Part shown: positions 13,459 through 20,529 of the stretch, in pieces
Layout of the letters: each line of letters begins with the position of its first letter
Position numbering within the stretch: the first letter of the stretch is position 1
Assembly (NCBI GenBank): GCA_030668875.1
Contig: DAOVER010000030.1
Span: 5,849 to 37,848 of the forward strand
Source: Candidatus Heimdallarchaeota archaeon
GTDB lineage: Archaea > Asgardarchaeota > Heimdallarchaeia > Heimdallarchaeales > Heimdallarchaeaceae
DNA length: 32,000 bases
Reading direction: 5' to 3'
Translations under genes and position numbers: made by a program
Notes under the pieces: generated by a model
The model's input: the letters and a program-made list of their open reading frames with translations, nothing else
What the model was told of the DNA's origin: nothing
Database searches by the model: none

Positions 13459-16102
13459 TTATTTTTTAGGTTTCTTAATTAGTTTGACAATAGTAAAAAC
13501 TCCCCAGATTGATGCTACTGCTCCTGCACCAACGAGTGTACCCCAACTTTGGAAAAATGAAACAAATGATGATGGAATTGTTAAGTCTATAGTAAAATTG
13601 TAACAATGGTTGTTTCCTGCATTATCATAAGCTACAACCGTGATGTTGTGTGGACCACTATCTTGTTGAATACTAGTGTCCCAGTTATATTCGTAGATAG
13701 TATCTTCTTGAGGTGTTGTAAGAGTAGCAATCAATTGAAGATTATCAATAACCTCAACCTTTTGTATACCACTTCCAATATCAGAAGCATTGATTTTGAT
13801 GTTTGTTATACCAATCGATGGAGAGGTTGCGAGATCAACTATTACCACGTTTGGTTCTATGTCATCTATTATTTCGTATGAATAAAATGCTCCTGAATTG
13901 TCATCTACTCTTAGATTCCCTTTTGTATCAAGTAATTCAAACCTAAACTGAACGTTTGTTCCATAGTCAAAAGCTGGTAGTGTAACCTCATAATTACCCA
14001 TATACGGAATACAAGGTAATCCGACCCAGTTTGATTCATACAGGTAGAAAAGGTTAATCTCTTCAATTTCTGATAGTAAATCTTCTGCAAAGATATCCAT
14101 CTTAACTTTATCGTAGTAGGTGGGGGTATCCAAAATTTCCCACGAGAGTAATTCTGGTCCATTTGTGTCTTTTACAAAGTTCATATCATCAAACATTACT
14201 GAAACATAACTACCTGTGCCATATGCTGCTGCAACTAATTCTACCCTAGTTAGATTCCAAAGTTCATCTCCAAAAGCATTAGAAGCATCTTTACTAATAT
14301 CTCGAACTAAATTATTCCATACTCCAGTTTGGTTAAATTGTTTAACCAAATAGCATTGGGTGCTACTTGTATTTGTAAAAGATGCTACTTGCCCAGCTCC
14401 AAGAATGTAGTGGATATTATAACCTCCTTCAAATGTTAATTTTATAGTGGAAAAGGAATTCGTTACTGCATCAATAGAGTTCAATTTCCACCAAAAATCT
14501 GTATAGAGATTGTCTCTGACGTAGAACATCAGATTTCTATATAGTGAAACTTCGCCATAATTTTCAAAGGATGTGAGATTAGCTCCCCAAATTCTGCTAT
14601 GGCTGTCATCTGTTGAAGATATGTGTGTTTCAGTAGAGCTAGTACTCCAGCTTGTAATAGGAACAGAAGGAGTTCTATACCATTCTTCTTCAAAAGAAGG
14701 ATCAGCTAAAGGATAAGTGTTGATTTGTAAATCATCGATTAATAAATTAACTGTGGAATTTGCATAGTATCCAGAATTAGTAATCAAACTAAGACTAGTA
14801 ATAACTTGATTACTTAAATTAAAGGCTTCGTAAAGCTCAAACATATCAATGTGAAAATGATTCCAAGCCCCTTTTACGCTAGATAAAGAGGTGTTCAAGT
14901 AATAATACTCGTAAGTTGGTTGGGAGTAATTTGACCAAGGAATTTCATCTTGACCACTTCCTAAAAACCAGTAAAAATAGCTTTGATAACTTTCATTTTG
15001 CCCTTGTAAATAGAAATATGCATATTGTTCAGTACCACCGTTTAAAACATCTGTATATTTCCAATCAAAGTCTATCTCCACCATTCCAGGTGATGAAGGA
15101 TAGTATCCCCTCCTAAACGTTTCATAGGATGACATAGAGTAAGAAATAGAACTTGATGAACTTGAACTTGCGTAGTAAGAATTTGCTGTCAAATTCAAAG
15201 ATTTATCTCCTTCTATTGAATCATCACTTAATCCAATGTACCCTCTTCCTTCTTTGTTACCTGCCCAACTTGATCCTGTCCCTGTTTCAAAATCTCCATT
15301 ATCAGCTAAATAGTTGAAGGAAGAATCATTTTGCATACTAACGTCGTCTATAACTAGTTCAGTGAAACCAGTACCATGATACGGTGAAGTTGAGTAGAAA
15401 TATATGTAATATACATATACTGTAGAAGAAACACTTCCAAAAGCTTGTTCAAAATCATTTGTAACATTTCTTTGTGCTAAATGTTGCCAACTAGCTGCAG
15501 GTCTAATCATATTGAAATATGCTCGATAAGTGTCATTCGTCATCGAAAAGGAAGATGCTGATAAATAATAGTTTATAGTATACCATTGAAAAATAGCTGG
15601 ATCAAATATTCTTAGTCTCGCATAAGAACTACCTCCAATAGTTATATCTGGATTAGCAACTGTATTCCACCAAAAATCTAAAGATATATTCTCAGCTAAA
15701 TTCGGTAAAAAAGGTTGACTATAATATCCCCAAATTATGTAATTAGTTGCACCACTAATTTTTGTTCCCTCACACGAAGAGTACCCTGAATATAAACCAT
15801 TATGTGTTAGTGATTGATAGTTAAGTTCACTGTAAGAGTTGCTGCTAATAGAATGGTCCATACGTTCAGGTAGGCCTTCAGGAGTTGACTCTTCAAAGTT
15901 CCCATTAGGAATAATATTCGTCCATAATTGTTCTTCTCCTCCAGCTCCTACTGCTGCAAAAATTTGATTTATTTTACTCTGCTGGGGAGAATTGTTTGTT
16001 GTGGATATTTGTTTACCTAATACTAGATCTGAAGTAACTGTTGAAATAAAAAAAAATCGTAAGTAGGAAAACTGCTAAAATAGTTTTACTTTTCTTTTTC
16101 AT
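13459..16102 (-). CDS. Large secreted surface protein (~880 aa; three CBM-like beta-sandwich repeats, Ig-like domains, C-terminal anchor), frameshifted in an A9 tract
   Basis: ATG at 16102 gives MKKKSKTILAVFLLTIFF. Removing one A from the 16048-16056 run joins it in frame to the 15861 ORF via ISTVTSDLVLG...IIPNGNFEE. Repeated NGNFE/NGDFE/DPSFE domain starts, then a C-terminal TM helix plus KKPKK. Confidence 0.85.
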
Positions 16103-16295
16103 TATATCGCCTTTTATTGTATTTAATTGGATAATTACCTTTTTAAGATAATCATCTAAAATATATAAAGTTTCTTTGTAACTGTTTTAAATCATGAAAA
16201 TTAGTTTTTAAGAAAAAAAAGGAGGAAAAATATTATATTATATTATTTTTCATTTCGATTCACTTATGACATGAATTGTGTACAAATTCTTTAGA

Positions 16296-16426
16296 AGTGC
16301 CTGAGCACATCATGGAGACGCCACATCCCCTCCTACACCGCCCACATCTTCTTTCAAAGGTGCTTACGGTTCGCTTTTGGATGTTCGTTGGATGTAGCCC
16401 CGAGGATCATCATGTAATTGATGCAT
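16296..16426. ncRNA. Candidate structured RNA or cis-element (GC-rich intergenic island), unassigned
   Basis: About half G+C against an AT-rich background. GCCACATCC (16320-16328) can pair with GGATGTAGC (16390-16398), with ACATCT/GGATGT nested inside. No known family recognised. Confidence 0.25.
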
Positions 16427-16540
16427 AGCTACAATCCTTAAATTTATAATCTACACTACCCTACTTAAACTCCAAAAAAATGTACAAAAAGTATGTTGTA
16501 AACAGATGAAATGAGCCTTAAATTTGAAGTTTTTGGTTTT

Positions 16541-16553: not shown

Positions 16554-16604
16554 TTGTATTAACTGTTAATCTCAATAGATTAAAAACACAAGATAAATAA
16601 AGCA

Positions 16605-16620
16605 TAAAGAGAAAAAAAAG
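16605..16620 (-). terminator. Oligo-T tract, candidate terminator of the minus-strand micro-ORF transcript
   Basis: A-run (AAAGAGAAAAAAAAG on +) immediately after four hairpins in the minus-strand direction. Confidence 0.35.
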
Positions 16621-16626
16621 CAGGAA

Positions 16627-16718
16627 GTCTCTGTGCAAATTGTGTTTTAAGAGACAAAGGAATTTCGTCTCGAAATTTCACAATCTCCAAGAGATTAGGG
16701 GAGGATTAATCCTCTCCC
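16627..16718. repeat. Four back-to-back short inverted repeats
   Basis: GTCTCT/AGAGAC (16627-16655), GGAATTTCG-tct-CGAAATTTC (16659-16679), AATCTC-caa-GAGATT (16682-16696) and GGG-GAGGATTAATCCTC-t-CCC (16698-16718). Confidence 0.85.
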
Positions 16719-16729
16719 ACTCCTTCTAA

Positions 16730-16780
16730 TTATGGTGGCCAAAATTCTGGCTCGTCAGGGTCTCCACCGGGACTAAACAT
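16730..16780 (-). CDS. Putative 16-aa micropeptide MFSPGGDPDEPEFWPP
   Basis: AAGGAGGTG RBS 9 nt before the ATG, locally GC-rich codons, followed by hairpins and a T-tract. Confidence 0.45.
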   Translation of the reverse strand: MFSPGGDPDEPEFWPP

Positions 16781-16838
16781 CTTTCCATGCACCTCCTTAT
16801 GTCACTATTGTTTGGAAGACAACAAGGAGGGATCTTCT

Positions 16839-16886
16839 ATGTCAAAAAGGACGAAACTTGGCTTTTTACCCCTCTTCAGTCTGTAA
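16839..16886 (+). CDS. Putative 15-aa micropeptide/uORF MSKRTKLGFLPLFSL
   Basis: AAGGAGGGA RBS 6 nt before the ATG. The RBS can pair with CCTCCTT at 16792-16798. A 7-bp hairpin follows at 16903-16920. Confidence 0.35.
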   Translation: MSKRTKLGFLPLFSL

Positions 16887-16976
16887 GATGCTGTTTTAGC
16901 TGTCGGGTATTTTTACCCGATACTCCATCATATGAAGGAAAATCGTTAAATAAAACAAAAAACTCTATAGATTGCC

Positions 16977-18464
16977 ATGTCTGGCATTACAAATCAGAAT
17001 CTTGTAATTAGATTGGAGGAAGCGGAAAAAATCTTGGAGGATGATTATACTCAATTCCATAGTATTATAGTTGACAATTATATCCAGTATGAATCTCCAT
17101 TGTGGGACATAGCTTGCTTTCTGACCTTCTATGAACTTTCACCTAAATCAGTAAAAAGGCAGAAATGGGTGGAATACTGGTTCAAATTCAGTAAAACAAG
17201 AAGATACAAGAATCTAGTTTACATGGTTCCAGCCAGCTATGTTGCATTATCTGATTTGCGTAAAGCCAAAGACTTTTTCGTCGATCTTTTAGAACAAAGC
17301 AGAAAATCAGTGAAAGAGTTAGCTTGGGAAACTTTCCTATCTATTTTCTATCAATTCAGAGCATCTGTCAAACCCTCATTCAATAAAAGAGAATTTACAG
17401 TGTTTAAGACAATTCTAGATAGACAAACAATGGTTTCAAGCGAACTTAAAGATTACTTAGATATTGATCTCTCCAATATTTCAAAATATAAAACTATCGT
17501 AGAATACAAGAGAGTCTTACATCAAGGTATATCATTAAATTATCACAAACTTGATCTTTCAGTATATGGTTTGATGTTCGAATACCCTCTGACTAAGGAT
17601 ATTGACCTTTACTCTGAATTGTCAAATAGTGTGTTTTTTCATTCTTTGTATACTGGAAATGTTGGATGCAGATCCGCTCTCTCATATTTTGTTGCTCCTA
17701 GACATAAAAAGGTGGAAGAAGACTTCAATAAATTATCAAAGAGAATAAGTAAAAATAATCATATCCCTTACTCTCGTATTTTACGGTTTCTAACAGAAAC
17801 CAGATTAAAATCATTTAATTGTGGTATTTACGATTTTAAGAATGGACATTGGACACTCAATCCTCAAAATCTTCAGTTTACGCTTCAAGATTATGATTCA
17901 AGATTAATAGAAACAGTACCCATCCTAACACGTGATTTTGAGAACTGTGATTATGAAAAACTAAAATTGAATAAAACGGGTCTTGATATCTTAAATCACA
18001 TACTAGCAAATATGCATCTGTCGATAAGGGATATAGTCAGTGATCTTGGATTAACAGAAAAGGAAGTAAAGAAACAAGTTGATAATCTTCGAAAAAACGA
18101 GTTGTACAAATTAAGATACAACCCCTTATTCGTGTTTGGCTTAAAACATATTATCATATTTCTTCATGATTCTCATAAAAATCAGCATGAGATCCATAAG
18201 ACTCTATCCTTTTTCCCAGAAGTATATAGTGAACAATATGTATCTAAAGGAAAAAATGGTCTTTACATTGTTCTTAGGATCCCTTATGAGCTTGTAGTTG
18301 ATGCAATTGAGTCTCTTACTAACTTTTTCAAAGGAAAAATAGAGAATCTTTTCATTGTTGACCAAATGATTACAACAAGATATCAGTTGCCTGTAGATAG
18401 ATATGAAACAGTTTTTCAGGAGTGGAAATACTCTTCTGAAGATATTTTGGGAGTTGATTTTTGA
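16977..18464 (+). CDS. Large transcriptional regulator with two tandem Lrp/AsnC-like wHTH plus effector modules and an N-terminal extension
   Basis: HTH 1: REFTVFKTILD...SELKDYLDIDLSNISKYK...LNYHKLDL. HTH 2: GLDILNHILANMHLSIRDIVSDLGLTEKEVKKQVDNL...FGLKHIIIFL. Confidence 0.75.
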   Translation: MSGITNQNLVIRLEEAEKILEDDYTQFHSIIVDNYIQYESPLWDIACFLTFYELSPKSVKRQKWVEYWFKFSKTRRYKNLVYMVPASYVALSDLRKAKDFFVDLLEQSRKSVKELAWETFLSIFYQFRASVKPSFNKREFTVFKTILDRQTMVSSELKDYLDIDLSNISKYKTIVEYKRVLHQGISLNYHKLDLSVYGLMFEYPLTKDIDLYSELSNSVFFHSLYTGNVGCRSALSYFVAPRHKKVEEDFNKLSKRISKNNHIPYSRILRFLTETRLKSFNCGIYDFKNGHWTLNPQNLQFTLQDYDSRLIETVPILTRDFENCDYEKLKLNKTGLDILNHILANMHLSIRDIVSDLGLTEKEVKKQVDNLRKNELYKLRYNPLFVFGLKHIIIFLHDSHKNQHEIHKTLSFFPEVYSEQYVSKGKNGLYIVLRIPYELVVDAIESLTNFFKGKIENLFIVDQMITTRYQLPVDRYETVFQEWKYSSEDILGVDF

Positions 18465-19918
18465 TGAATGAAATCTATTTGACATTTTATCAATTTGTAC
18501 CATTAATAGAAATGACTTACTCACCAGAACTTCGAGATCACTTGAAATTCTTAGCTGAAGGAAACACTGCAGCTAAAACCATTGAAAAGAGTTATAAAAA
18601 CAAAAAGATAAGTGAAACGTCAGAAGACATCAAAACTGCTTTTCTTCCAACTTACAGCGATTTGAGATGGTCTTGGTATGATGATGGTTATAACTATTAC
18701 AGAAATTTTCGGAGTTTCATTTTTCAAAAGCAACCTCTGAGACCACTTGTTCCGCTAATATCTAGAACAATAAAATGGAAGGGAACGCCAACAATAGGTT
18801 CTAAAATTGTTTCCACAAAAAAAGCTGAATTATCTCCAATTCTAATTGGTCGCTCGATAAAAAAAATAGTCCTCACGAAAACTGGTAAGAATCTTCTAGA
18901 CTTTGAATCGAATCTGAAAATATTGCTCCGTTTCTGCAATAAGAGTAAAAACAAAGAGAAAATGTGTTTTCTAAATGGAGTTTTCAAAGAAACAGGAGCT
19001 ATAAGTATTCAAGATTCAGATATTATAACAATCATTGAGACAGATCCACAAACGTATAAGAATATTAATTTTACAAATCAGAAAATAAGTCGCATATATT
19101 ATGGTGGAATAGAGATCTTAGTACACGATATGAAACAAGTTTATATTATTTACAAAGAAAAACCACCAAAAATACTAAGGAAGAGAGTAGAGAAAATCGT
19201 TTCTTTGTTTTTCAGTTTGAAATTCCTTATTCAACGTGCAACATATTTATTGAGCACTGATTTATTGGAAAATATGGGGATTAGGGCTGTCTCAAACATT
19301 ATGGAATACTTTCTATCATCCTTAAATCCGTCAATCTATTCTTCTCAAAATATACCAAATCTGCTACCAAAACATTACCAAAGAATGCTATTCAAATCAC
19401 TTTGTAGAAAGATGAACCTTCTAAATAAATTTTCGTATCTTTTTGAAAAAATCAAGAAAAAAATACTCGATATGCCTGCTTATGAAGCAAGTTTCTTTTT
19501 CAAGAAGAAGAATATATTTACAAACGATCTGCGAGACAAAGTTATTCTTACTCTAGCTGAAGAGCCAGAACCAGAATTAACGGAGAAGGAAAGATTGATG
19601 TTGGACTTCTTTGTTTCTCAATATAAGAAAGAACTAGAAAATGATGCACTTTATGATTTCAAAATCCGACGAAAGAAAACTTTAGGTTCTATGTCTAGAA
19701 ATTTTATCAGGAAGAACATTAACCATTGGTTAGTGGTTAAGGGTTTTCCAACCAATACTTTTACAGATAACGAGTTGAAGAAAAACCCTGTAGCAGATGT
19801 ATTAAGTAGGCTAAATAAAAAGGACTTGATACTTATTGACCAAATGGAAAAAGGAAAAACAGATTTTCTTCTAAACCTAAATGACGAGAACAAATTTATA
19901 GTAAAATTATTGCTGTGA
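18464..19918 (+). CDS. Hypothetical cytoplasmic protein with probable C-terminal winged helix, translationally coupled to the upstream regulator
   Basis: TGATG stop/start overlap at 18462-18466. C-terminal LTEKERLMLDFF...VADVLSRLNKKDLILID looks wHTH-like. Confidence 0.7.
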   Translation: MNEIYLTFYQFVPLIEMTYSPELRDHLKFLAEGNTAAKTIEKSYKNKKISETSEDIKTAFLPTYSDLRWSWYDDGYNYYRNFRSFIFQKQPLRPLVPLISRTIKWKGTPTIGSKIVSTKKAELSPILIGRSIKKIVLTKTGKNLLDFESNLKILLRFCNKSKNKEKMCFLNGVFKETGAISIQDSDIITIIETDPQTYKNINFTNQKISRIYYGGIEILVHDMKQVYIIYKEKPPKILRKRVEKIVSLFFSLKFLIQRATYLLSTDLLENMGIRAVSNIMEYFLSSLNPSIYSSQNIPNLLPKHYQRMLFKSLCRKMNLLNKFSYLFEKIKKKILDMPAYEASFFFKKKNIFTNDLRDKVILTLAEEPEPELTEKERLMLDFFVSQYKKELENDALYDFKIRRKKTLGSMSRNFIRKNINHWLVVKGFPTNTFTDNELKKNPVADVLSRLNKKDLILIDQMEKGKTDFLLNLNDENKFIVKLLL

Positions 19919-20229
19919 AGTATACTGTTTCTTACCTATTACTGTTAATTATCATTACTTCGTTTTTATGGTAATTTCTCAGTGTTTTTTTATAATTTTG
20001 AGACAAAAAAATCTTCTTTATAATACCATTCATTCTCTGTAAATCAATAACGTGATTAAATGTTTGATATAACCCCAGTAGTTTATAGTCACAATTTCGT
20101 GACATGGAGGGAGTCATGATGATTATGGATAGTACTGGAAGAACTATATTAAAGAGAGTTTCATTTTTTTTTCAAAATGTGGAGCAATGAAGGTAGGTTG
20201 AGTTGATTGATTTAGAATGGAGAATGAAA

Positions 20230-20529
20230 ATGGGCAAAAGTTATCAGTTTTACTGTAAAGAATGCGAATTAAATATGATATTATATGAAGGTATCAAGTA
20301 CAAAACAGATGATACTTCAATAAACTATTATTGCTTTAAATGTAACAAAATATCTTATCATGATACTTGTTTAGATTGTGGAGATAAGCTATATTACTCT
20401 ATTGAGATACCAAAGGAAAAGCGAAAGATGCACAATTCTTCTGATCAACCTATTGAAATCAAACTAGCGTGTCCAAAATGTCGATCTAAAGAAACCATTC
20501 TTACAAAAATAGGTGAATGGGTGCTTTGA
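20230..20529 (+). CDS. Small zinc-ribbon protein with four CxxC motifs
   Basis: CKEC, CFKC, CLDC and CPKC. GGAG lies 7 nt before the ATG at 20230; the ORF track starts at 20203. Confidence 0.75.
   Translation: MGKSYQFYCKECELNMILYEGIKYKTDDTSINYYCFKCNKISYHDTCLDCGDKLYYSIEIPKEKRKMHNSSDQPIEIKLACPKCRSKETILTKIGEWVL

Follow-up and report, generated by a model that had tools for sequence, protein, structure and literature searches.

The window analysed here, 32,000 nt of a contig from Candidatus Heimdallarchaeota archaeon, carries on its minus strand, between 16850 and 16612, what its sequence suggests to be a small self-contained transcription unit with a Shine-Dalgarno (SD) element, a micropeptide ORF, a structured RNA domain, and a T8 terminator. 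The ORF (16730..16780) comprises 16 codons followed by TAA, starts with ATG at 16780-16778, stops at 16732-16730, and encodes MFSPGGDPDEPEFWPP. The SD element AAGGAGGTG (16790..16798, minus strand) is set off from the ATG by a 9-nt spacer. The RNA domain occupies the 110 nt after the stop codon (16620..16729), and the T8 tract (16619-16612) directly follows it. On the plus strand, divergent from this unit across a shared intergenic region of 196 nt, lie the gene for a 495-aa double Lrp/AsnC-type protein (16977..18464) and the overlapping gene for its 485-aa partner (18461..19918). The original prediction had placed a strong ribosome-binding site, a frame running from ATG 16780 to TAA 16730, and then hairpins and a T-tract at this site, all of which were confirmed on the minus strand. 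The ORF had also been described as GC-rich, and the GC content is indeed ~50% over 16720-16809 against ~32% for the whole window. Likewise, the guess that the genome was Asgard-like agrees with the naming of the homologues as Candidatus Heimdallarchaeota.

The micropeptide frame is kept in orthologues G016 (identical peptide, 3 synonymous changes), G010, G002, and G013. Across the five orthologues, start, stop, and length remain unchanged, change is mainly synonymous, and the variable columns number 3, 4, and 11 at the first, second, and third codon positions, respectively. Within codons 7 to 16 of the same set, 18 synonymous vs 8 non-synonymous pairwise codon differences were counted. The peptide is acidic and proline-rich: 9 of its 16 residues are D, E, or P, with DPDEPE at residues 7 to 12 and W-P-P immediately before the stop. 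Neither a signal peptide nor a hydrophobic segment is present in the 16-aa product. Its conserved core is P-D-[DE]-P-E-[FP]-W-P-P, and the form P-[DNG]-[DE]-P-x-x-[WFLVI]-P is common to 23 loci, while the N-terminus is variable; the distance from core to stop differs by 0 to 2 residues between loci (up to 8 in G294). An SD element of the type GGAGGTG(A), or a near variant (GAGGTGA in G042, G044, and G158; GTGGTGA in G012b), is located ~6 to 10 nt before the peptide start in nearly all loci, including those of a second Asgard family, f11. Two other ways of reading the region were rejected. The alternative minus-strand frame from ATG 16788, whose conservation would have spoken against the gene, is not conserved and has lost its ATG in G002 and G013, and an N-terminal extension from GTG 16792 is shut by a TAG in the aligned sequence of G016. 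Since frame, start, stop, and SD element are kept in 23 loci and are accompanied by covarying hairpins, the feature goes beyond chance. Judged from these alignments, the 16-codon frame is a real, previously unannotated small gene under selection. The check proposed at the outset, an inspection of the regions upstream of homologues of the 16977 gene, thus returned a conserved peptide frame with synonymous variation, and the claim of a real small gene with its own ribosome-binding site, 3′ UTR, and terminator holds.

The RNA domain was delineated by RNAalifold, pair counting, and a covariance model. On the minus strand, it folds into helix P1 (16724-16720 pairing with 16626-16622), hairpin P2 (16718-16698), P3/P3b (16694-16679 pairing with 16644-16628), and hairpin P4 (16671-16651). 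The RNAalifold consensus has 24 pairs, 14 of them with compensatory changes, and pair counting gave 93.5% paired vs 33 to 58% in slid controls. The folding energy of 16729-16620 is -38.8 kcal/mol (z = -4.5, 200 shuffles), and G-U pairs favour the minus strand. Strong matches to the covariance model (R1) occur at peptide loci only; weak matches elsewhere (22 to 28 bits) have no peptide beside them and were taken as chance. The P2 hairpin GAGGAG-AUUAAA-CUCCUC was found in nearly all loci of the Heimdallarchaeaceae, and in family f11 a covarying hairpin likewise follows the peptide stop. The architecture is reduced to one or two hairpins in the G011, G042, G044, and f11 loci, and the first helix begins 6 to 15 nt after the stop. 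In group A, the N-terminal half of the ORF is less conserved than the RNA domain. The hairpins are not a mere terminator: they form a conserved, covarying RNA domain, which goes beyond the dedicated 3′ UTR and terminator that had been predicted. A T-rich run follows the structured domain at every locus with downstream sequence (the contig breaks off in G185 and G042). Transcription in archaea terminates at oligo-T tracts, and on this basis the T8 tract is probably the intrinsic terminator of the peptide transcript. The 5′ arms AAUCUCU and GUCUCU are repeated and, to judge by their sequence, could compete for one 3′ arm. The window gave no Rfam match at gathering thresholds and only noise at E<=10 (e.g., CRISPR-DR63 at 18.9 bits vs a threshold of 37), and ARAGORN found no tRNA in it.

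The AF2 model of the 495-aa protein (pLDDT 88) consists of an N-terminal helical domain (residues 1 to 135) and two fused Lrp/AsnC-like units, each a winged helix-turn-helix (wHTH) followed by an alpha/beta domain. Residues 137 to 495 align structurally with NirDL (4czc_A; Z 15.4 over 286 residues, 11% identity), and each half aligns with single Lrp/AsnC proteins (PH0061, ST1022, AsnC, and others) at Z 6 to 7. The order that defines Lrp/AsnC proteins, a wHTH and then an alpha/beta RAM domain, occurs twice in the fold, whereas the Pfam HTH_24 score of 20.4 bits is under the cut-off of 21.9. According to the model, therefore, this protein has a fused double Lrp/AsnC fold resembling NirDL; it is restricted to Asgard archaea. 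The partner is translationally coupled to the 495-aa gene. Its residues 370 to 485 form a winged helix (AF2 pLDDT 83; VIA Z 8 to 9 to the winged helices of ORC/Cdc6 and MarR), while its N-terminal 370 aa gave no fold match by Foldseek or VIA-align, and Foldseek at E<=0.001 returned no match for the partner. Only 43 relatives of the partner were found among 1.84 billion representatives, and Arg, Lys, Tyr, and Trp are prominent among its conserved residues. PADLOC, NCBIfam, and Pfam found generic wHTH similarity only in the three cassette proteins, and the ESM Atlas gave no usable match.

The intergenic region holds several candidate control elements. A candidate promoter or operator for transcription of the peptide gene is the T-rich motif CCTTTTTGACATAGAAGAT (16832..16850, minus strand), which precedes the peptide ATG by 52 to 70 nt; most loci have a related motif, with a T run followed by G.C and AGAA, at equal distance. 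A possible anti-SD, CCCUCCUU (16823..16830, minus strand), could pair with the SD element if transcribed. The predicted 9-bp SD-sequestering hairpin is kept in group A, MG63, MG65, and G011; it is not predicted in G001, G005, G013, and G044 and is therefore not a family-wide feature. The palindrome TCGGGTA-TTTT-TACCCGA (16903..16920) is a candidate operator, at which protein may bind. In groups A and B it is conserved and precedes the 495-aa gene by ~60 to 75 nt; the MG65 copy shows a double change that is symmetric (TCAGGTA...GCCTGA), and other subfamilies have different palindromes at the matching position. A TATA-like box, TTAAATAAAA (16946..16955, plus strand), precedes ATG 16977 by ~27 nt, and TTAATAAA or TTAAATAAA is found at the matching distance before the 495-aa gene in most loci. 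A box at this position suggests that the mRNA of the 495-aa gene is leaderless.

At all 23 peptide loci, a peptide of the same kind lies divergently 150 to 245 nt upstream of the double-Lrp gene. Seventeen of these loci belong to the Heimdallarchaeaceae (5 orthologous and 12 with related peptides) and 6 to family f11. The partner is present at all 17 Heimdallarchaeaceae loci wherever the downstream sequence is known. In f11, the double-Lrp protein is 22% identical, and the gene downstream of it is a remote homologue of the partner (E 6e-14 to 2e-6 at the four loci tested). Every homologue of the 495-aa protein that also has the 485-aa partner carries the divergent peptide upstream, and paralogues without the partner are also without the peptide. 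The proposed tie between the small gene and a tandem-Lrp/wHTH pair is thereby extended to every partner-bearing homologue. From these gene neighbourhoods, the cassette appears as an Asgard-specific arrangement of the peptide unit, the fused double Lrp/AsnC protein, and the coupled winged-helix partner, of which our literature search found no description. The genome itself has one copy each of the peptide motif and the RNA domain.

The kind of gene found 3′ of the RNA on the peptide strand is not conserved between loci. This gene is co-directional with the peptide in 13/16 loci and convergent in G016 and G010, and a T7-T9 terminator separates it from the peptide ORF. Downstream of the T tract, the next gene has a separate TATA-like promoter in group B and G044. 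Where cas6 is the next gene, it is located 139 to 224 nt downstream; the cassette stands at the head of a type I-B CRISPR-Cas operon in some relatives, and no such operon was found in this genome. A frequent fourth cassette gene encodes a 108-aa protein with four CxxC pairs (double zinc ribbon; 20203..20529, plus strand), which has no Pfam or NCBIfam family and whose homologues stand directly after the peptide terminator in G012, G001, G005, G011, and G019. The 800-aa surface protein was rejected as a cassette member, as it is not a conserved neighbour.

As possible roles of the peptide, the original prediction had named a signal, a ligand, or an inhibitor of the neighbouring pair. Our best guess, held at somewhat less than even confidence, is that the peptide is an effector of the neighbouring double-Lrp/partner pair. 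Both DNA-binding proteins would sit on the palindromic operator in the 196-nt region and control the two divergent promoters. The peptide, made in the cytoplasm and lacking an export signal, would be bound by the complex in the way that ordinary Lrp proteins bind amino acids, altering its binding to DNA, and the outcome would be a peptide-gated feedback switch. The structured RNA tail may stabilise the tiny mRNA or set its dosage, and in relatives the switch would front variable cargo, namely the type I-B cas operon, zinc-ribbon genes, and surface proteins. This reading is favoured by the coding conservation in five orthologues, by the divergent linkage at 23 loci together with the lack of the peptide beside partner-less paralogues, and by a co-directional downstream gene that is not conserved and is preceded by a terminator. 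The double Lrp fold, the winged helix of the partner, the palindrome with its symmetric change in MG65, and the covarying RNA domain are also in line with it. On the other hand, NirDL, the nearest structural match, is an enzyme and not a regulator, the proteins proposed to bind the core are much less conserved than the core itself, and the complex RNA fold exceeds the needs of a stabiliser. Furthermore, pheromone-type peptides usually diverge into specificity groups, and we know of no Lrp/AsnC protein with a peptide ligand. The core is, besides, of the Asp/Glu/Pro-rich, Pro-Pro type that disturbs ribosomes (PMC5499558; 10.1101/2021.02.02.429294). A more far-reaching form of the effector reading, which we regard as possible but doubtful, would make leaderless proline-rich peptides of 15 to 24 aa the intracellular ligands of the Asgard double-Lrp/winged-helix pair, controlling adjacent variable genes (including type I-B CRISPR-Cas in some lineages), with a new RNA family setting the dosage; this would be the first archaeal peptide-gated transcription switch.

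The ribosome-disturbing character of the core is the starting point of the main rival, to which we likewise give clearly less than an even chance and which the original prediction had not considered, namely that the unit is a cis-acting translation sensor similar to MgtL, with no job for the peptide itself. The Asp/Glu/Pro-rich ORF ending in Pro-Pro-stop would stall or drop ribosomes depending on aIF5A, Mg2+, polyamines, or prolyl-tRNA, and the ribosome position would set the RNA folding and thereby termination at the T-tract vs read-through, or the lifetime of the RNA. N-terminal DE/P clusters abort translation in E. coli, which is how MgtL (MEPDPT...) senses (10.1101/2021.02.02.429294), and the motifs PPD, DPP, and PPW as well as termination after Pro depend on EF-P/eIF5A (PMC5499558). 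In the micropeptide, all six residues of DPDEPE, within the first 12, are D, E, or P, and the ORF ends in W-P-P-stop. The core persists in both Asgard families, between which protein identity falls to 22%, a conserved RNA domain and a T tract directly follow the ORF, and most of the next genes are co-directional, cas6 among them. However, the downstream gene is not conserved, is convergent in G016 and G010, and has its own TATA-like promoter in group B and G044. The variable distances from core to stop and from stop to first helix, as well as the single consensus fold returned by RNAalifold, also speak against it. To our knowledge, ribosome destabilisation by DE/P sequences has not been shown in archaea. 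The 17-codon leader ORF MgtL of mgtA (Salmonella, E. coli) is also very short, with an N-terminal Asp/Glu/Pro motif, and shares its DE/P richness with the cassette peptides (MEPDPT... vs ...DPDEPE... or ...PNDPEPLP...); in both, structured RNA and a termination site come after the ORF (10.1101/2021.02.02.429294). MgtL, however, is part of the 5′ leader of a single conserved gene and works via alternative stem-loops, whereas the cassette is archaeal, has a strong T8 terminator and an unconserved downstream gene, and in several loci leaves that gene a separate promoter.

The remaining explanations appear improbable to differing degrees. If the 110-nt domain were itself the product, as a small regulatory RNA or a platform binding the partner, the ORF would serve its expression or stability. 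The strong covariation, the greater conservation of the RNA domain than of the N-terminal half of the ORF in group A, the near-ubiquity of P2 in the Heimdallarchaeaceae with a covarying hairpin after the stop in f11, and the co-occurrence with a partner whose conserved residues are Arg/Lys/Tyr/Trp-rich would suit such a role. We nevertheless consider it unlikely: from one family to the other, the RNA changes in sequence and partly in architecture but the peptide core persists, and the codon-position pattern and strong SD element show selection on the protein sequence. About equally unlikely is a PqqA- or MftA-like role, in which the ORF would encode the precursor of a modified peptide or of a cofactor derived from it. 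The C-terminal core would then be the substrate and the winged helix the recognition element, and the modifying enzyme would be either the partner's 370-aa domain or the double-Lrp protein with its likeness to NirDL. A tiny gene with a very strong SD element, a variable N-terminus and an invariant C-terminal core, locked genetically to two proteins, would fit this, as would the enzymatic nature of NirDL as best structural match (Z 15.4) and a partner domain without a fold match. The identity to NirDL is only 11%, however, and Pfam shows no radical-SAM, YcaO, P450, protease, or transporter genes in the cassette or the window. Regulation accounts better for the divergent gene order and the palindromic operator, and the place of some cassettes at the head of a cas operon does not suggest biosynthesis. 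Hardly credible, finally, is a plus-strand reading, in which the 495-aa gene would have a long, structured 5′ leader here, containing a Leu/Phe-rich uORF (16787-17011). This 74-aa ORF exists, and the hairpins fold on the plus strand too (z = -3.65). But its ATG 16787 is ATA in G016 and missing in G002 and G013, indels break the frame in G002, the third-position variation fits the minus frame, the G-U pairs favour the minus strand, and the conserved TATA-like box 27 nt before ATG 16977 points to a leaderless mRNA.

Annotation pipelines overlook genes of 15 to 24 codons, of which very few archaeal examples are known; we know of none this small in Asgard archaea, the presumed lineage of origin of eukaryotes. 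The present gene is under clear selection, is conserved in at least two Asgard families, and is tied to a lineage-specific DNA-binding pair and a new structured RNA. If true, either main reading would be new for archaea, be it a translation sensor based on a proline/acidic sequence or a peptide effector acting on a switch of the Lrp type. The recurrent place of the cassette before CRISPR-Cas loci hints that archaeal immunity may have a new layer of control.

Among known systems, the RRNPP cassettes of Bacillota (Rgg/SHP, ComR/ComS) likewise place a peptide gene of ~15 to 25 codons beside, and often divergent from, a gene for a DNA-binding protein, and the cassette resembles them in standing in front of variable target genes. 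At 16 aa, its peptide is also about as long as the S. mutans ComS (17 aa). RRNPP peptides, however, are exported and then re-imported, with a signal or hydrophobic pro-peptide, whereas the cassette peptide is acidic and hydrophilic, without an export signal or hydrophobic segment. Inspection of family f6 loci likewise turned up no export-tagged forms of the peptide. The receptors differ as well, being HTH-TPR proteins in RRNPP systems and a double Lrp/AsnC fold with a winged-helix partner here; Pfam and fold comparison gave no TPR match in the 495-aa protein. A core that barely diverges between lineages and a conserved structured RNA after the ORF further set the cassette apart. Dual-function small RNAs combine a translated micro-ORF and a conserved structured RNA on one short transcript (PMC12612679; PMC11456600). 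The peptide unit, if transcribed and translated as predicted, would resemble SgrS/SgrT, RNAIII/delta-haemolysin, SR1/SR1P, SR7, and the spRNAs of Methanosarcina mazei in this respect; it differs from dual-function RNAs in having the ORF at the 5′ end and the structured part 3′ and in being locked to a specific regulator pair. With the siroheme decarboxylases NirDL and AhbAB, which are Lrp/AsnC-fold enzymes, the 495-aa protein has the fused double Lrp arrangement in common. In contrast to NirDL, it has an extra N-terminal domain of 135 aa and no visible haem-pathway context, and it differs from both NirDL and ordinary Lrp/AsnC proteins in always lying beside the micropeptide when the partner is present.

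The micropeptide ORF, MFSPGGDPDEPEFWPP, lies on the minus strand in the intergenic gap between the gene for an 800-aa surface protein (minus) and the gene for the 495-aa double-Lrp protein, which begins at 16977 (plus). As read from the sequence, it runs from ATG 16780 to TAA 16732-16730, with the Shine-Dalgarno element AAGGAGGTG (16798-16790, minus) 9 bases ahead of the start codon. The G+C content of this stretch is about 50%, compared with 32% for the whole window, and neither Rfam nor ARAGORN matched a known RNA family or tRNA in it.

When 40 related genomes were searched at the DNA level, four contained a conserved, single-copy counterpart of window 16576-16976 (89%, 84%, 77%, and 73% identity). 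The ATG, the TAA, and the 16-codon length are kept in all five aligned sequences (the window and genomes G016, G010, G002, and G013). The G016 peptide is identical to that of the window despite three synonymous changes, and G010, G002, and G013 encode MFDPIEDPDEPEFWPP, MFYPPEDPDEPEFWPP, and MYGPDGNPDDPEFWPP, respectively. Variable columns at codon positions 1, 2, and 3 number 3, 4, and 11 in this alignment, and codons 7-16 show 18 synonymous versus 8 non-synonymous pairwise codon differences. The preserved start, stop, and length, the mostly synonymous change, and the recurrence in distant loci bear out the original prediction of a real small gene.

Other readings of the stretch were rejected. 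The alternative minus frame, which the original prediction had named as the one that might be conserved instead, lacks its ATG in G002 and G013. A GTG extension of the minus ORF is closed by TAG in G016, and the ATG of a 74-aa plus-strand ORF is changed to ATA in G016 and missing from G002 and G013. A plus-strand leader was likewise discarded.

Upstream of distant 495-aa homologues, where the original prediction had proposed to look for a conserved ORF, a divergent micro-ORF is indeed present. It lies 160-245 nt upstream of homologues of 38-40% identity in six genomes (G012, G001, G005, G011, G015, and G019) and three metagenome contigs, with the peptides MDPEEWLPDDPSPWPP, MKGPIEFPPDDPEPWPP, MDPEEWLPDDPDPWP, MFGPIEFPPDDPGPWPPM, MDPINFPPDDPEPWP, and MFGPAWPPDDPGPWPPF. 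Longer peptides occur at members of 28-30% identity, namely MRYNGPPEPFPNDPDPVPPQ (G042), MKKDYYLPPPEDDEPNDPEPFPFP (G044), and MKSDNWICPPNGDPNDPEPLPVP (a second cassette in G012). A Shine-Dalgarno of the GGAGGTG type or GAGGTGA stands ~7-10 nt ahead of the start in all these distant loci except the second G012 cassette (GTGGTGA). No such micro-ORF was found at 495-aa paralogues without the overlapping 485-aa partner gene (G040, G043, G045, the second G044 copy, and the G042 tandem triple). A profile of the 495-aa family, run across 300 genomes of the phylum, recovered remote homologues in other families; direct comparison of one of them gave 22% identity over 486 residues. Six loci of a second Asgard family (f11) carry a divergent micro-ORF 100-175 nt upstream of the 495-aa homologue, encoding MALSSPPGDPHPIPPW, MQRPPDDPFPIPPWD, MYRPPDDPSPIPPF, (TTG)YHPPDDPHPIPPW, ..NPGDPWPIPPWRPA, and ..NPGDPYPIPPWVPDGPRA. 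Those with flanking sequence show the same Shine-Dalgarno, then a covarying hairpin and T tract after the stop, and their coupled downstream gene is remotely homologous to the partner (hmmsearch E 6e-14 to 2e-6, four loci). Taken together, these results show that the micropeptide gene is real and under purifying selection, and that the cassette (peptide gene with structured RNA tail, 495-aa gene, and partner) predates the family to which the window belongs, by source names Heimdallarchaeaceae of Candidatus Heimdallarchaeota.

Two further sets of double-Lrp genes have other surroundings. Remote homologues of another family, f6, have no proline-rich micro-ORF; a conserved divergent 58-aa Cys-rich ORF (..CILCNKEIN.., ending CGSGCSSCSGCG; L115 510-686 and L116 508-684, minus strand) lies ~500 nt upstream instead. 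The second copy in G001 (L043 16238-17700 / L061, G001:C16:140243-141722) is TAG-interrupted and adjoins a zinc-ribbon gene, and the peptide ORF is absent there.

The 110 nt 3′ of the stop codon fold at -38.8 kcal/mol with z = -4.5 on the peptide strand, versus a weaker -3.65 on the plus strand; G-U pairs also point to the peptide strand. A T8 run (16619-16612, minus) follows. In group A, a Heimdallarchaeaceae locus subgroup, these 110 nt show stronger conservation than the ORF does in its N-terminal half. From nine sequences of three subgroups, RNAalifold gave a consensus of four helices and 24 pairs. Compared with controls whose 3′ partners were slid 1-3 columns, 93.5% of cells were paired (controls, 33-58%), 14 pairs had compensatory double changes (0-4), and the covariation score was 0.57 (0.08-0.26), although few independent events underlie these values since most covarying changes separate two clades. 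The derived covariance model, run on 30 genomes of the family, matched strongly at 9/9 training loci and two new loci, each directly behind a peptide ORF; none of its weak matches elsewhere in these genomes had a peptide ORF. The first post-stop hairpin (stem GAGGAG/CUCCUC, loop AUUAAA-like) recurs in nearly all Heimdallarchaeaceae loci and covaries, being GAAGG/CCUUC in G044 and GGGAAC/GUUCCC in G013. Given an assumed transcription start, the window is predicted to form a 5′ hairpin that would sequester the Shine-Dalgarno, but this hairpin is not conserved family-wide.

The model of the 495-aa protein (pLDDT 88) comprises a helical domain (residues 1-135) and two wHTH plus alpha/beta units. 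This pair of units matches the fused Lrp-fold enzyme NirDL (Z 15.4, 286 residues), with the next match far lower, and single Lrp/AsnC regulators reach Z 6-7. The 485-aa partner (pLDDT 83) ends in a winged helix resembling ORC/Cdc6 and MarR domains (Z 8-9), a structure search with its model yielded no fold assignment for the first 370 residues, and a set of 1.84 billion representative proteins contains only 43 relatives. A frequent fourth cassette gene encodes a protein of ~103-108 aa with four CxxC pairs; the window copy is at 20203-20529, and in G012, G001, G005, G011, and G019 it stands just past the peptide terminator.

The region shared by the peptide and 495-aa genes contains a candidate operator, TCGGGTA-N4-TACCCGA (16903-16920). 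Its position is kept in group A and a second subgroup, B; both arms are changed symmetrically (a double change) at locus MG65, and other subfamilies carry different palindromes at the same place. The TATA-like TTAAATAAAA 27 nt ahead of ATG 16977 suggests that the 495-aa mRNA is leaderless. A separate motif, TACCAnnTTnnGAC, followed by a T-rich stretch and a TTTAAAT box, lies between the peptide terminator and a zinc-ribbon gene in G012, G001, G005, and G011 (loci L047, L043, L055, and L056). In G005 and G011 the motif also occurs, reversed, ahead of the double-Lrp gene, and it may be a shared operator.

Our preferred reading, held tentatively, is that the peptide acts as an effector of the neighboring pair. 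The 495-aa and 485-aa DNA-binding proteins would occupy the shared operator, and the cytoplasmic peptide would be the effector of both, comparable to the amino-acid ligands of Lrp proteins. We favor it because the three-way linkage is strict across 22%-identity distances, because partner-less paralogues lack the peptide, and because no downstream target is conserved. So conceived, the cassette resembles the peptide-plus-regulator pairs Rgg/SHP and ComRS; it is not a member, as it lacks their TPR receptor and export signal. No published description of the cassette was found in a literature search.

The main rival, a cis-acting sensor with a hard-to-translate core, seems to us somewhat less likely. 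The core is a textbook sequence of that kind, with Asp/Glu/Pro clusters close to the N-terminus and Pro-Pro ahead of the stop. Clusters of this sort destabilize the ribosome in E. coli, an effect used by MgtL (MEPDPT...) (10.1101/2021.02.02.429294), and EF-P/eIF5A is needed at PPD, DPP, and PPW motifs and at termination (PMC5499558). The extreme core conservation and the conserved RNA and T tract immediately behind the ORF would also fit a sensor. Against a sensor stand the putative separate promoters of downstream genes in some loci and the lack of a common target: the next gene varies in kind, although it is co-directional in 13/16 loci. The cassette resembles the leader-peptide sensor MgtL but does not seem to be a member, as no downstream gene is conserved. 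An RNA-centred function and a precursor of a modified peptide are lesser alternatives to the effector reading.

In G044 (L038/L086, G044:C1:944000-962000) and the second G012 cassette (L042, G012:C8), cas6 and then cas8b directly follow the peptide gene. G044 continues with the whole type I-B operon (cas7, cas5, cas3, cas4, and cas1) and a 71-repeat CRISPR array, beyond which lies a second double-Lrp paralogue. Peptides of this cas-linked subfamily end PNDPEP[LF]P[VF]P. CRISPR arrays with related 37-nt repeats also stand behind the peptide gene in the f11 genomes G158 and G173, starting ~340 nt and ~1.2 kb downstream (L110 2963-3678, G158:C13; L121 7665-9144, G173:C6). The cassette is nevertheless independent of CRISPR-Cas, since the window has no array and its 92%-complete assembly no detected Cas1.

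A GC-rich ~235-bp element (16263-16502) separates the peptide terminator from the surface-protein gene. At least six copies occur in this genome (contigs C10, C92, C39, C47, C95, and C3) and dozens across the genus, 77-90% identical and with unrelated flanks; the element has no Rfam match and no obvious terminal inverted repeat. The 800-aa surface-protein ORF (13459-15861, minus) apparently has its true start at 16102, where a 29-codon signal-peptide-like ORF (MKKKSKTILAVFLLTIFF..., 16013-16102, minus) lies out of frame with it. A nine-base homopolymer (~16047-16055) is situated between the two; phase variation, a frameshift, or an error in sequencing may explain the frame break.
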